The position numbers and the translations under genes are program-made. Positions 17,286-61,166 of a DNA stretch of 64,000 nucleotides are shown here, piece after piece. The stretch comes from Candidatus Sulfomarinibacteraceae bacterium. GTDB lineage: Bacteria; Acidobacteriota; Thermoanaerobaculia; Thermoanaerobaculales; Sulfomarinibacteraceae. The first letter of the stretch is position 1; the number at the start of each line of letters is the position of its first letter. The notes below the pieces were generated by a model. The model searched no databases, was not told the origin of the DNA, and was given only the letters and a program-made list of their open reading frames with translations. The DNA lies in the NCBI GenBank assembly GCA_963796455.1, contig CAWCLO010000001.1, positions 544,001 through 608,000 of the forward strand, in the 5' to 3' direction.

Positions 17286-17406
17286 AACCGAAATCTGTTT
17301 CGACGGAAAGATGCCCGGGTAGCTCCCTGCATCTTGCGTCTCCAGTGACCAGCGCCAGCGACAGGGAACAGCGGTCAGCGATCAACGGCCGGGGCAGCGA
17401 CTGCAA

Positions 17407-17760
17407 TCACATCTTCGGGTTCAACAGCCGCCAGGTCATCGCACGAACCTGATCGAAGGCGTTCATCCCGTCACGGGCGGCTGTCGCCCTGATCGCCCCG
17501 GCGTGCACGAGGAGCTTCAAGTGGCTGTCGACTTCTTTGGCCGATGCGTAGGCGATTCTCCAGTGATTCGATCGGTCTCTTCCGAACCGGCCGTGCCCTT
17601 CTGCCAGGTTCGCAGGGACTGAACTTGCCGAACGGATTACCTGATCGGCTATGGACTTCAGCGGCGATGGAACCCTCATTACAAGCTTGATCGCGATTCC
17701 TGCTGCTTCGAGGGCTTTCGAGTGGGCGACGAGGTTGGTGTTCGTGGCGGCTGAGGACAT
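17407..17760 (-). CDS. four helix bundle protein (23S rRNA IVP/bAvd-like), copy 1, 117 aa
   Basis: DQVIRSASSVPANLAEGHGR and IAYASAKEV signature; ATG at 17760 preceded by GGAGGTGA. Confidence 0.9.
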   Translation of the reverse strand: MSSAATNTNLVAHSKALEAAGIAIKLVMRVPSPLKSIADQVIRSASSVPANLAEGHGRFGRDRSNHWRIAYASAKEVDSHLKLLVHAGAIRATAARDGMNAFDQVRAMTWRLLNPKM

Positions 17761-17896
17761 GGTCACCTCCGGGTCGTTCATGCCCATTCCCACAAGCCGG
17801 TGTGGTGGCCGATGTCAAGGATGCCCTGCACCCTGCCTGTCCTCGACATCGGCCGCCCACCGGCTACCCCTTCTTTTGAACGACCCGGAGGCGGCC
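17761..17896 (-). promoter_or_regulatory. conserved two-tier leader hairpin covering the RBS, copy 1
   Basis: 17761-17780 pairs with 17877-17896, and 17795-17821 pairs with 17840-17865. Confidence 0.75.
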
Positions 17897-18151
17897 ACAT
17901 CGTCGCCTGTACTCCTGATCGCTGCCGCAGTCCTCTGTCGCTGTTCCCTGACGCTGTTGCCTGTCGCTGACGCTGGACACTGACGCTGGACACTGCCGCT
18001 GCCGCTGCATTTCGGCCACAGACGCGGACACGGGCACGGGCAACCGCGAACCGAATATTCTAAAAACCAACCCGTAAAGCACGTATTGTCAGGTGGGTAA
18101 CTTCACGACAATCTGTTTTGGACAACAGATATCCTGCATCCTGGATCCTGC

Positions 18152-47191: not shown

Positions 47192-47940
47192 ACAGGGGCA
47201 GCGATCAGTCTGACTGGTACGGAGACCTGCAATCAAGACTTTGGGTTGAGCAAACGCCAGGTCATGGCACGGACCTGATCGAAGGCCTTCATCGCTTCAC
47301 TGGCTCCATTCCGGCTGATCGCCCCGGTGTGCGCGAGGAGCTCCAAGTGGCTGTCGACCTCTTTCGCCGAGGCGTAGGCGATTCTCCAGTGGTTCGAACG
47401 GTCTCTACCAACTCGGCCGTGCCCTTCTGCCAGGTTCGCAGGGACTGAACTCGCCGACCGGATTACCTGATCGGCAATAGGCTTCAGCGGAGCTGAAACC
47501 CTCATCACGAGCTTGATCGCGATTCCTGCTGCTTCGAGGGCTTTCGAGTGGGCAACGAGGTTGGTGGTCGTGGCGGCGTTGGACATGGTCACCTCCGGGT
47601 CGTTCATGCCCATACCCACAAGCCGGTGTGGCGGCCGATGTCAAGGATGCCCTGCACCCTGCCTGTCCTTGACATCGGCCGCCCACCGGCTACCCCCTTC
47701 TCTTGAACGACCCGGAGATGGCCACTTCGTCGCCTGTACTGCTGACCGCTGCCGCTGAACACTGATCACTGTTTGCTGTCCCTGTCGCTGCTAACTGTCG
47801 CTGACGCTGGACACTGTCGCTGCCACTGCAATACGGGCGTGGACGCGAACTCGGACTCGCACGCGGGCACGGGGAAACCGCAAACCGGATATGCCAAAAA
47901 GCAATCCCTAAACCTCGGGTGGTCAGGTGGGCAACTTTAT
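47140..47940 (-). mobile_element. repeated four-helix-bundle cassette, copy 2 (boundaries approximate)
   Basis: Same architecture as copies 1 and 3; shares GTCAGGTGGG(C/T)AACTT near its right end with copy 1. Confidence 0.6.
47233..47586 (-). CDS. four helix bundle protein, copy 2, 117 aa
   Basis: Same signature and length as copy 1; leader hairpin at 47587-47723. Confidence 0.9.
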   Translation of the reverse strand: MSNAATTTNLVAHSKALEAAGIAIKLVMRVSAPLKPIADQVIRSASSVPANLAEGHGRVGRDRSNHWRIAYASAKEVDSHLELLAHTGAISRNGASEAMKAFDQVRAMTWRLLNPKS

Positions 47941-58527: not shown

Positions 58528-58602
<75 letters not shown>

Positions 58603-58684
58603 TAAAACTCATTTGAAGCCCGGCTCACCGCCGGGCCTTTTCTTTGCCGGTGCGAGCGGATTGACCCGTCGTCGGGGGGCAATC

Positions 58685-58713
58685 TTGACCGTCGCCGAGG
58701 CGTGGACTAAACT
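58685..58713 (+). promoter_or_regulatory. tRNA-Cys promoter
   Basis: TTGACC-17 bp-TAAACT. Confidence 0.7.
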
Positions 58714-58725
58714 ACCGGCCCTGAA

Positions 58726-58800
58726 GGCGACGTGGCCAAGTGGTAAGGCAGGGGCCTGCAAAGCCCTTATCCCCCGGTTCGAATCCGGGCGTCGCCTCCA
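58726..58800 (+). tRNA. tRNA-Cys(GCA)
   Basis: GGCGACG/CGTCGCC acceptor stem, CTGCAAA anticodon loop, TTCGAAT T-loop, CCA end. Confidence 0.98.
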
Positions 58801-58818: not shown

Positions 58819-58892
58819 GATGCTCGTTGCTCGATGCTGGATGCTGGATGCTGGATGCTGGATAAGTTTTGTCCGAGACAGTGTCTCGGACA
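58819..58892. repeat. (GATGCTG)n heptamer tract followed by a perfect 11-bp inverted repeat
   Basis: Six units at 58819-58860; TGTCCGAGACA-G-TGTCTCGGACA at 58870-58892. Confidence 0.85.
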
Positions 58893-59600
58893 GCGTTCAG
58901 GGACAGCAACGGCGGCAGCGGCAGCAAACAGTAGTCAGCGGCAGCATTCAGTCATCAGCGACAGCAAACGGCCCTCATATTCTCGGGTTCAATAGCCGCC
59001 AGGTCATCGCACGGACATGATCGAAGGCCTTCATTGCTTCACTGGCTCCGTCCCGGCTGATCGCACCGGCGTGGGCGAGGAGTTCCAAGTGGCTGTCGAC
59101 CTCTTTCGCCGAGGCGTAGGCGATTCTCCAGTGGTTCGACCGGTCTCTACCGACTCGGCCGTGCCCTTCCGCCAAGTTAGCAGGGACAGAACTTGCCGAC
59201 CGGATCACCTGATCGGCTATGGACTTCAGAGGAGCTGGAACCCTCATCACGAGTTTGATAGCGATTCCTGCTGCTTCCAGGGCTTTCGAGTGGGCAACGA
59301 GGTTGGTGTTCGTGGCGGCGTTGGACATGGTCACCTCCGGGTCGTTCATGCCCCATACCCACCAGCCGGTGTGGTGGCCGATGTCAAGGATGCCCCGCAC
59401 CCTGCCTGTCCTTGACATCGGCCGCCCACCGGCTACCCCTTCCTTGGAACGACCCGGAGGTGGCCACTTCGCCGACTGGAATCCTGATCGCTGCCGCTGG
59501 ATACTGACCGCTGGCCCTGTTCGCTGTTGCCTGTCGCTGTCGCTGGACGCTGCCGCTGCAATACGGGCACGGACGCGGACTCGGCGTAACGGCGAACCGG
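58890..59600 (-). mobile_element. repeated four-helix-bundle cassette, copy 3 (boundaries approximate)
   Basis: Same architecture as copies 1 and 2; leader hairpin at 59329-59465. Confidence 0.6.
58975..59328 (-). CDS. four helix bundle protein, copy 3, 117 aa
   Basis: Same signature and length as copies 1 and 2. Confidence 0.9.
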   Translation of the reverse strand: MSNAATNTNLVAHSKALEAAGIAIKLVMRVPAPLKSIADQVIRSASSVPANLAEGHGRVGRDRSNHWRIAYASAKEVDSHLELLAHAGAISRDGASEAMKAFDHVRAMTWRLLNPRI

Positions 59601-59651: not shown

Positions 59652-61166
59652 CTATTCCTCTTTTTTCTTTGCCGGTGCCTTCTTCTTTGCCGGCGCCTTT
59701 TTCTTCTTAGCTGGCGTCTCTTTCTTCTTTGCCGGCGCCTTTTTCTTTTTTGCCGGCGCCTTTTTCTTGGTCGTGCCGAGGGCCGCCTGGAGCTGAGCGC
59801 CGAAACCGGTCAGACCGGGTTCCGAGCCACCCTGGGTATCCATATGTTTCAGATACTCCTGCCGCTCCTTGTCCTTGACGAGGGCGTTCACCGACAGGCT
59901 GATACGCCGCCGCTCCGGATCCAGCGTCATCAACATGACCTGGATCTTTTCACCGGGCTTGAAGACGGTCCGCGGATCGATGTCCTTCTCCATCCCCAAC
60001 TCGGAGATCGGAATCAAGCCACTGAGACCCGGCTCCAACTCGACAAAGACACCGAAATCGGCACCGTTTTCGACAGTCCCTTCGACCGGCGACCCTTCGC
60101 GATACCTCATGGTGATGTTTTCCCACGGATCACGGTCGGGCACCTGGCGCATCGTCAGGCTGATGCGGCGGTTTTCGAGATCGATCTCGCGAACCCAACC
60201 GTGCACGGCCTGGTCCATTTCGAGCGTGTTGAGTTCGAGGCCCGGCTTCAACTGGCTGACGTGCAGGAGCCCGTCGATTCCCTGTTCGAGCTCTACAAAG
60301 GCACCAAAATCGGCCTTGCGGACGATCTTGCCGTCAAAGGAACTGCCTACCGGATAGCGCTCTTCGACCGCGCTCCAGGGATCATCCTGCAGAGCTTTCA
60401 TGCTGAGCGAGATCCGGTCCTTTTCGCGATCGAGCTCGAGAACCTTGACTCGGATCTCATCACCCTCGCCGAGAACGTCGCGGGGATGGCCGATCCGGTG
60501 GTGAGCGATTTCAGTTACATGGACCAGGCCGTCAACGCCACCAAGGTCAACGAATGCCCCGAAATCGGTCAGCGAGCGAACCCGGCCCTCAATTTCGCTC
60601 CCCGCCTCGAGTGTCGCCCAGGCCTCTGCCCGGAGTTTTTCTTTCTCCACACGAAGAAGCGCCGCACGAGAAACCACCAGGCGCTGTCCATCGGCTTCGT
60701 ATTCGAGCACTTTGAATGTGTAAGTCTGGCCGAGAAAGCTATCGACGTCATCGGTCCTCAGATCGGAAATATGGGACAGAGGGCAGAATCCGCGAACACC
60801 GGAAACGGTCACGTCGAAGCCGCCCTTCCGTCGTCCCATGACCTTTCCCTCGACCGGCTCGCCGGATTTGGCGGCGGCCTCGAGCTTTTCCTTGAGCTTG
60901 GCCTCGAGAGCCATTCTTCGCGAAACCCGAATCTCTTCTCCCGCCGAAATGACGACAACTTCAACCGGATCTCCGGTTCCGAGGTCGTCGAGTTCCGAAC
61001 GGTCGAGAACAGCTTCCGATTTTCCCGACACATCCACCAGCGCGACGTCCCCTTTGATGACAACAATGGTGCCCTCGATGACGTCTCCCGGTTTCAGGTC
61101 CTCTGCTTCGAAACTCTCGCGCAGAGCGAGTTCAAATTCGTTGGCGGTGTTTGATTCCTCGGTCAT
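59652..61166 (-). CDS. ribosomal protein S1-like protein (five S1 domains) with basic KKKAPA tail
   Basis: Repeated (D)FGAFV(D/E)L..G(I/V)DGL(L/V)H motifs; start MTEESNT at 61166. Confidence 0.88.
   Translation of the reverse strand: MTEESNTANEFELALRESFEAEDLKPGDVIEGTIVVIKGDVALVDVSGKSEAVLDRSELDDLGTGDPVEVVVISAGEEIRVSRRMALEAKLKEKLEAAAKSGEPVEGKVMGRRKGGFDVTVSGVRGFCPLSHISDLRTDDVDSFLGQTYTFKVLEYEADGQRLVVSRAALLRVEKEKLRAEAWATLEAGSEIEGRVRSLTDFGAFVDLGGVDGLVHVTEIAHHRIGHPRDVLGEGDEIRVKVLELDREKDRISLSMKALQDDPWSAVEERYPVGSSFDGKIVRKADFGAFVELEQGIDGLLHVSQLKPGLELNTLEMDQAVHGWVREIDLENRRISLTMRQVPDRDPWENITMRYREGSPVEGTVENGADFGVFVELEPGLSGLIPISELGMEKDIDPRTVFKPGEKIQVMLMTLDPERRRISLSVNALVKDKERQEYLKHMDTQGGSEPGLTGFGAQLQAALGTTKKKAPAKKKKAPAKKKETPAKKKKAPAKKKAPAKKKEE

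Follow-up and report, generated by a model that had tools for sequence, protein, structure and literature searches.

The window analysed here, a stretch of 64,000 nucleotides from the genome of a Candidatus Sulfomarinibacteraceae bacterium, contains three copies of a unit in which a long hairpin lies directly upstream of a minus-strand gene for a four-helix-bundle protein (Table 1). In the first copy the ATG of this gene is at position 17760, and the 117-aa protein also matches PDB entry 2gsc weakly (E 0.0013). Gene and leader can be aligned across all three copies. On either strand of each copy the predicted fold has an outer and an inner stem, separated by an internal loop and closed by an apical loop. 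Free energies of -89.6 to -95.8 kcal/mol and z scores of -8.6 to -12.4, with 0 of 200 shuffled sequences folding equally well, together with the alignment bear out the two-tier hairpin that an earlier note on this DNA had described in all three copies. The conserved loop of about 18 nt described in the same place does not extend outside this genome, where relatives have loops of 24-38 nt. At one further locus (L028) the apical loop runs opposite to that of its sister copies, an inversion that template switching in a palindrome would be expected to produce. The Rfam check proposed in the earlier note connected the hairpin with no known family: the scan of the window returned two tRNAs only and no match to the hairpin, and related hairpins gave only sub-threshold matches of the miRNA type. 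An identity of the window copies as rRNA intervening sequences was considered and rejected, because Rfam detected no rRNA in the window and the three copies sit between protein or tRNA genes. The third copy is located between rpsA and two tRNA genes (58528-58797), and at 59657-59768 a 21-bp tandem repeat encodes a lysine/alanine-rich tail on ribosomal protein S1.

Table 1. Features of the hairpin-gene unit in the window and of related loci that differ from it (promoter terms refer to the proposed reading).
Feature	Position	Strand	Basis or remark
Four-helix-bundle gene, 117 aa, PF05635 / TIGR02436 (23S-IVS protein and Avd-like family)	17407..17760	-	Both profiles over cut-off
Outer stem, gene-side arm; template strand of predicted downstream duplex	17760..17780	+	Sense strand carries SD and in-frame 7-codon extension
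Shine-Dalgarno-like GGAGG of 117-aa form	17766..17770	-	Sequence
Conserved upstream in-frame ATG at bubble edge, predicted +1 to +3	17779..17781	-	Possible leaderless start
Template side of putative pre-opened bubble	17781..17794	+	From folds; inferred start site ~17783-17781, transcribing leftward
Inner stem, gene-side arm = template strand of -35 box and spacer	17795..17822	+	As duplex DNA without A(-11)
Apical loop, short here; two mini-hairpins in most relatives	17823..17839	.	Folds
Non-template -35 box, TCGACA in window copy 1	17843..17848	+	TTGACA in 65/68 copies
16-bp spacer, paired, sequence free	17849..17864	+	Alignment, covariation
T(-12) paired, A(-11) unpaired, then non-template bubble side; no conserved T(-7)	17865..17876	+	Alignment
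Outer stem, upstream arm	17877..17897	+	Folds
Hexamer-type repeat arm, complementary to arm after stop codon (~17330-17406)	17900..18010	.	Limits approximate
Worn terminal inverted repeat of cassette, IS4-type	18110..18130	-	Sequence
Second window copy	47233..47724	-	ORF 47233-47586; + strand -35 at 47669-47674, TA at 47691-47692
Third window copy	58975..59466	-	ORF 58975-59328; + strand -35 at 59412-59417, TA at 59434-59435; worn terminal repeat ~58864
Nine deletion loci	G000 C1:1000025, 1137370, 470291, 391131, 368265, 661794; C3:98137, 14069; C10:438295
Inner-module-swapped loci	L080:1300-1503, L054, L063, L070, L072-L074, L077, L079, L081

Throughout the genome 68 full hairpins are present, 58 of them with an intact ORF, scattered over nine of the ten contigs and in both orientations. 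A generic scan of the genome for TGTCAA/TTGACA stems gave 69 sites, which are the 68 known copies and one gene-deleted copy. The copy at 17761 is slightly worn, and among the 68 it alone has TCGACA at the TTGACA site of the upstream arm. Leader copies are 3.4% and ORF copies 7.0% divergent from the consensus (ORF codon positions 1 and 2, 3.6%), so that the leader is, as had been claimed, at least as conserved as the ORF. The ratio of nonsynonymous to synonymous variants in the ORF is 0.20, indicating that the ORF is under purifying selection. The hairpin-gene unit was found in 23 of the 41 genomes searched, close relatives belonging to Ca. Sulfomarinibacteraceae, Holophagae or Thermoanaerobaculia; in a draw of 201 genomes from the phylum, three contained matches at E 1e-12, and no relatives of the 117-aa protein were detected in the PLSDB plasmids or viral contigs searched. 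A distant homologue from another class (L134 in G166, 44% identity) has a worn hairpin and an SD downstream of the outer stem.

Hairpin and gene are flanked by hexamer-repeat arms complementary to each other and by terminal inverted repeats, with no transposase in between. Among 60 inward-facing pairs of terminal repeats, the flanking repeat is 7 bp long in 16 and 14 bp long in four and is missing in 28; many of the 7-bp flanking repeats fall in heptamer arrays and three are unique 7-mers. Heptamer arrays are seen at 58819-58863 of the window and at many cassette-end flanks, their unit having the length of the 7-bp target duplication, and might have been built by repeated insertion and excision or might be preferred targets. 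In a relative, locus L311 has a DUF4372+DDE_Tnp_1 gene between ends that match those of the cassette, and of 23 transposase loci of the genus that were checked this is the only one with both cassette ends. The sole IS4-superfamily transposase of the present genome (L131, G000 C7:289607-293101) was considered as the mobiliser of the cassette and rejected, since its own terminal repeats are, by eye, unlike the cassette ends; it is a separate DDE_Tnp_1 element. From terminal repeats, target duplication and a matching transposase element, the vehicle is predicted to be a non-autonomous IS4 cassette, which we take to be a derivative of the MITE or mobile insertion cassette kind. With such derivatives it shares terminal inverted repeats, a short target duplication, a passenger gene and a matching autonomous IS4 element in a relative. 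The likeness concerns the vehicle and not the hairpin, and in the related family f2 the hairpin-gene module occurs without IS4 ends (none of 26 loci scanned matched cassette ends).

The earlier note had also offered the hairpin as the cis-acting recognition site of the element. Such a site would be comparable to the DNA sites that mobilising proteins of IS200/IS605 or REP hairpins use, and a conserved hairpin of DNA type in an element with many copies would agree with this role. Nine dispersed loci share, however, one deletion of most of the hairpin, in which the upstream arm is joined to about codon 57 via a short microhomology, and ten near-identical loci in relatives keep the outer stem and have, as inner part, an unrelated hairpin module without TTGACA. 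Since the cassette is bounded by terminal repeats of its own, which match those of an IS4 transposon from a relative, together with 7-bp duplications, and since copies with the hairpin deleted or its module swapped are dispersed too, the claim is weakened and we regard a mobilisation site as extremely improbable. Just upstream of one of the swapped hairpins (L080:1231-1277) there is an Rfam match to Acido-Lenti-1 (37.2 bits, cut-off 37).

The strand of the hairpin that is the template for the gene displays a promoter-like arrangement. TTGACA, 16-17 nt and TA follow each other on this strand in 67 of the 68 copies of the genome and in 89 of the 94 relatives that were parsed out of 101 unique sequences (seven were not parsed), TTGACA being exact in 81 of the 94 in this BLAST-derived genus set. 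A metagenome scan with a pattern composed of the two -35 halves (TTGAC) and ATGAAC, in which TA, spacer and spacer pairing were outside the pattern, yielded at least 121 loci and at least 117 distinct matches; the 117 matches listed comprise 59 loci with stem and gene, 24 with the stem only (some of them reverse readings or cut genes) and 34 without stem. For the 59 stem-and-gene loci among the matches listed, TA is present in 54, at a spacer of 16 (17 loci) or 17 (37 loci), and absent in five, and none of the 59 has TA at a spacer of 15-18 on the gene-side arm; TA at -12/-11 never occurs on the gene-side arm of own or genus copies either. In these 59 listed loci T(-12) is found in 55, A(-11) in 58 and T(-7) in eight, the discriminator is C-rich, and 57 have an ATG 12-14 nt downstream of -12, although the scan pattern permitted about 10-22 nt. 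A set of 35 diverse metagenomic loci among the matches listed, picked for distinct spacers and with the -35 box built into the pattern behind them, gave strong covariation: 96.9% of cells are paired, double changes occur at 31 of 46 pairs and spacer pairs vary freely. None of 500 shuffles reached this level and slid controls were 31-48% paired. The covariation analysis proposed in the earlier note thus strongly favours the stem.

From these data the layout of the template strand is evident: TTGACA, a stem of 16-17 bp, T(-12)A(-11), about 12-14 unpaired nt forming a bubble, and a downstream duplex of about 20 bp, the bubble ending at a conserved in-frame ATG. The stem contains a -35 box whose distance from the -10 position fits sigma70. 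A canonical -10 hexamer is not formed, as T(-12)A(-11) is kept and T(-7) mostly absent. Judged by sequence only, the duplex form would be a poor promoter, the gene-side arm having no TA. The host itself uses TTGACA-N16-18-TANNNT promoters, a pattern with 76 matches in its genome and 21 for the reversed control. In the part of the literature consulted on the sigma70 open complex (PMC7057261), a 16-19 bp spacer, a bubble from -11 to +2 and an A(-11) flipped out by sigma are described, and the layout predicted for the hairpin is that of this complex.

In one subfamily of f2 the outer arm is inside the coding sequence and the stem contains neither SD nor second ATG; here the gene-side -35 is disrupted and TTGACA-17/18-TA is kept on the template strand. 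This subfamily indicates that the common element is the promoter geometry with its ATG at the bubble edge and not the SD. Two paralogous modules are arranged in convergent pairs, one per strand, on five contigs of relative G040 (loci L301 and L305, contigs C393, C411 and C500). Convergent pairs of four-helix modules, each with its own hairpin, also exist in G036 (L285/L292), and G040 has 43 TIGR02436 matches. Hairpins of similar layout without a four-helix gene were seen in metagenomic (L360, L403, L420, L376, L366, L401, L411) and viral (L204, L274) contigs; they share a paired TTGAC, about 17 bp, mostly TA, a bubble and an outer stem, and Pfam found only transposase, integrase, PIN and terminase pieces beside them. 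Such gene-less hairpins are possibly members of a wider family of single-stranded DNA promoters or origins.

The earlier note had seen no clear strand preference in the wobble positions of the stems, and with more copies this no longer holds, the template strand of the gene being favoured. Counted as G.T on the template strand and G.U on the mRNA, the wobbles are 49 vs 1 in the inner and 65 vs 5 in the outer stem of the genome's own copies, 38 vs 11 and 47 vs 8 in the genus set, and 26 vs 7 and 27 vs 4 in metagenomic loci among the matches listed, where the counts include inherited changes and, as copies are related, overstate independence. Distinct wobble classes also favour the template strand, with 15 vs 5 in the own genome and 25 vs 14 in the genus; for the 15 vs 5 classes p is 0.04 against 50:50 and 0.001 against a hand-derived mutation expectation of 0.615. 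Rare ORF variants show sense C>T in 33 cases and G>A in 14, so that mutation bias would oppose the excess of template wobbles. The better fold is on the template strand in 61 of the 68 copies; the fold of the sense strand is slightly better in window copy 1, and for copy 2 the DNA folds of the two strands tie. GNA triloops are a stable motif specific to DNA. In the apical mini-hairpins, C-GNA-G triloops are found 25 times on the template and never on the sense strand in family f2, and 24 times on the template and four times on the sense strand in metagenomic loci among the matches listed, and GNA triloops of the genus set are evenly divided (12 template, 14 sense). RNA tetraloops are nearly absent (1/20, 2/34 and 1/38). 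The sense-strand G.U wobbles and RNA loops expected of an mRNA leader that sequesters an SD are thus not what was found, and the conserved features suggest, as far as sequence can tell, a folded DNA template strand rather than an mRNA.

Part of this evidence would also be compatible with an ordinary promoter that points outward from the upstream arm, or with an antisense RNA mimicking an open promoter in the manner of a 6S decoy, as the antisense strand of the upstream arm carries TTGACA-17-TA in the duplex and the observed wobble bias would likewise follow from an antisense RNA. An outward promoter would nevertheless be without T(-7), which is part of the duplex promoter pattern of the host, and would leave the paired inner stem without a reason, and Rfam gave no 6S match; to our knowledge, 6S RNAs use no sequence-specific -35 box. 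Little credence is therefore given to either form of this explanation.

The arm of the outer stem next to the gene includes the SD of the 117-aa form, and an upstream in-frame ATG precedes the second start by 21 nt in 67 of the 68 copies. Of the metagenomic stem-and-gene loci among the matches listed, 57 of 59 have the SD within the outer stem and 56 of 59 the second ATG at +21. The predicted probability that GGAGG is unpaired is 0.0 in a read-through RNA and 0.32-0.40 in an RNA starting in the bubble, and the SD is accordingly paired in the sense RNA, as expected for a leader that sequesters it. That the hairpin hides the SD and keeps translation off, which is how the earlier note had understood it, is thus predicted for read-through RNA and leaves the promoter-like features unexplained. 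As an mRNA leader, the hairpin would bury SD and start codon either as a guard against host read-through or as an autoregulation site for the Avd-like protein, and the very stable sense-strand fold agrees with this. A similar protection of the ribosome-binding site occurs in IS10 and IS50. In the sections available of the respective papers, a stem-loop occluding the ribosome-binding site is described for IS200 (PMC3196728), and Avd, which PF05635 proteins resemble, is essential for retrohoming (PMC10053308). What the hairpin has in common with these IS stem-loops is that the SD is predicted to be buried in RNA read through from outside and not in RNA with an inner start. The stem-loops of IS200, IS10 and IS50 act as RNA, however, whereas here it is the template DNA strand to which the conserved signals point. 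In three sets the wobbles lean to the strand opposite the mRNA, and do so against mutation bias, RNA tetraloops are scarce, and one f2 subfamily does without an SD in the stem. Burial of the SD as the sole role explains too little, because the invariant -35, the 16-17 bp spacer, TA on one arm, the template wobbles and the triloops of DNA type are left unaccounted for, and an explanation as mRNA leader is judged unlikely. As a second role of the hairpin, the predicted silencing of read-through RNA is plausible, since SD and second ATG are in place in nearly all listed loci, and a leader role of this kind can hold beside the fold-back promoter proposed below.

We consider it probable, from sequence and predicted structure, that the hairpin is a fold-back promoter. 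Once single-stranded, the template strand would take on the form of a sigma70 open complex, and only then would host RNA polymerase transcribe the gene from it. The polymerase would bind the -35 box and A(-11) with no melting of DNA required, and the pre-opened bubble, by sparing the melting step, would remove the need for T(-7). Transcription would start at or just before the upstream ATG, and the resulting RNA would lack the upstream arm, so that translation would be leaderless or would begin from the SD thus set free. A start inside the hairpin, which the earlier note had listed among the findings that would speak against its reading, is predicted by this geometry. As the gene-side arm has no A(-11), the promoter would be dead in the duplex; in read-through RNA the fold would hide the SD, and in this way the 68 chromosomal copies would be kept quiet. 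In assembled contigs from RNA runs of relatives, six pieces were found, two of which extend past the predicted start into the inner stem; such contigs are blind to starts and strand and may be DNA, and they are given no weight here. Several observations are counted against a fold-back promoter, namely the absence of T(-7), the C-rich discriminator, the even split of triloops in the genus, the module-swapped loci, the IS4 ends, the lack of a lagging bias and of a reverse transcriptase (see below), the presence of SD and second ATG in the stem in 56-57 of the 59 listed loci, and the folds of window copies 1 and 2.

The geometry and the strand evidence would be identical for a single-strand origin of the sso/ssi type, on which a primer RNA made on the hairpin would convert a single-stranded cassette or its carrier to duplex, with gene expression being secondary. 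Promoters of the Frpo type also yield primers according to the portions available of two sources (PMC12672017; 10.64898/2026.01.09.698686), and similar hairpins without the four-helix gene exist in metagenomic and viral contigs. Against an origin speak the conserved in-frame ATG at which the bubble ends, the purifying selection on the ORF and the dispersal of copies that lack the hairpin. We know of no single-stranded form of the cassette, and an origin as the main role appears very unlikely.

A fold-back promoter has a precedent in the single-stranded DNA promoters of plasmids, which, in the parts consulted of PMC9849209, PMC11541004 and PMC12672017, comprise Frpo1/2 and ssi1-3 (class 1), klcA/ardA including F ssp2 (class 2) and M.EcoGIX (class 3), with a further source in 10.64898/2026.01.09.698686. 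These promoters are alike in being long single-stranded stem-loops upstream of a gene that rebuild -35 and -10 positions and are expected to be inactive in the duplex, and in the present case, too, the stem-loop of the template strand is directly upstream of the gene. They differ in that the hairpin described here is chromosomal, exists in dozens of copies of a transposase-less cassette without a demonstrated oriT or leading region, keeps only T(-12)A(-11) of the -10, and has a full pre-opened bubble and a coding downstream duplex. The copies do not map to a conjugative leading region: they are dispersed, and relatives of the protein are absent from the PLSDB and viral contigs searched. A comparison by blastn of the hairpin against PLSDB gave two short matches at E 0.4 and no homologous plasmid hairpin. 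Class 2 and class 3 promoters were compared by their text descriptions, and a similar bubble could already be known there. The hairpin likely works like the plasmid promoters and is a putative member of their group. The 23S rRNA intervening sequences with an S23p ORF in Coxiella and Leptospira are alike in protein family and in having the gene within complementary arms, as far as the available part of PMC4990558 describes them; the window copies differ by lying outside rRNA. In Coxiella, cutting by RNase III removes the SD region and the protein is probably not made, and that part of the paper describes no promoter-like hairpin (PMC4990558). A literature search of titles and abstract beginnings, covering few subscription journals, gave no paper that links the PF05635 gene family to a single-stranded DNA promoter.

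The weakest step of the proposed mechanism is its trigger, which would most likely be DNA entering single-stranded by transformation or conjugation, or otherwise replication or repair gaps; a trigger by entering DNA is speculative. Cut-and-paste transposition of the IS4 type has no single-stranded stage. A DGR-like or retro route was considered and has no support, as no reverse transcriptase was found in the genome (90.5% complete) and rare variants are not adenine-biased. The orientation of the copies shows no bias towards the lagging template (40 leading, 28 lagging). A gene with a ComEC-type Competence domain is present in the genome, which would allow DNA uptake. More tentatively, and as a proposal that we hold to be doubtful, the unit may be a chromosomal sensor of single-stranded DNA, that is, a mobile module with an open-complex promoter formed only in single-stranded DNA and a burst of IVS/Avd-like protein on entry or damage, which would perhaps help the cassette to survive or integrate. 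The opposite-strand module pairs in one relative would cover either entering strand.

Single-stranded DNA promoters are known mainly from conjugative plasmids, where those of the leading region time anti-defence genes. If the fold-back promoter proposed here is true, the single-strand promoter device would be extended to transposon cargo, with dozens of chromosomal copies and the start codon at the start site. It would also provide a natural part that reports single-stranded DNA, and for the long-unexplained PF05635 protein it would give the timing of its synthesis and make its function testable.
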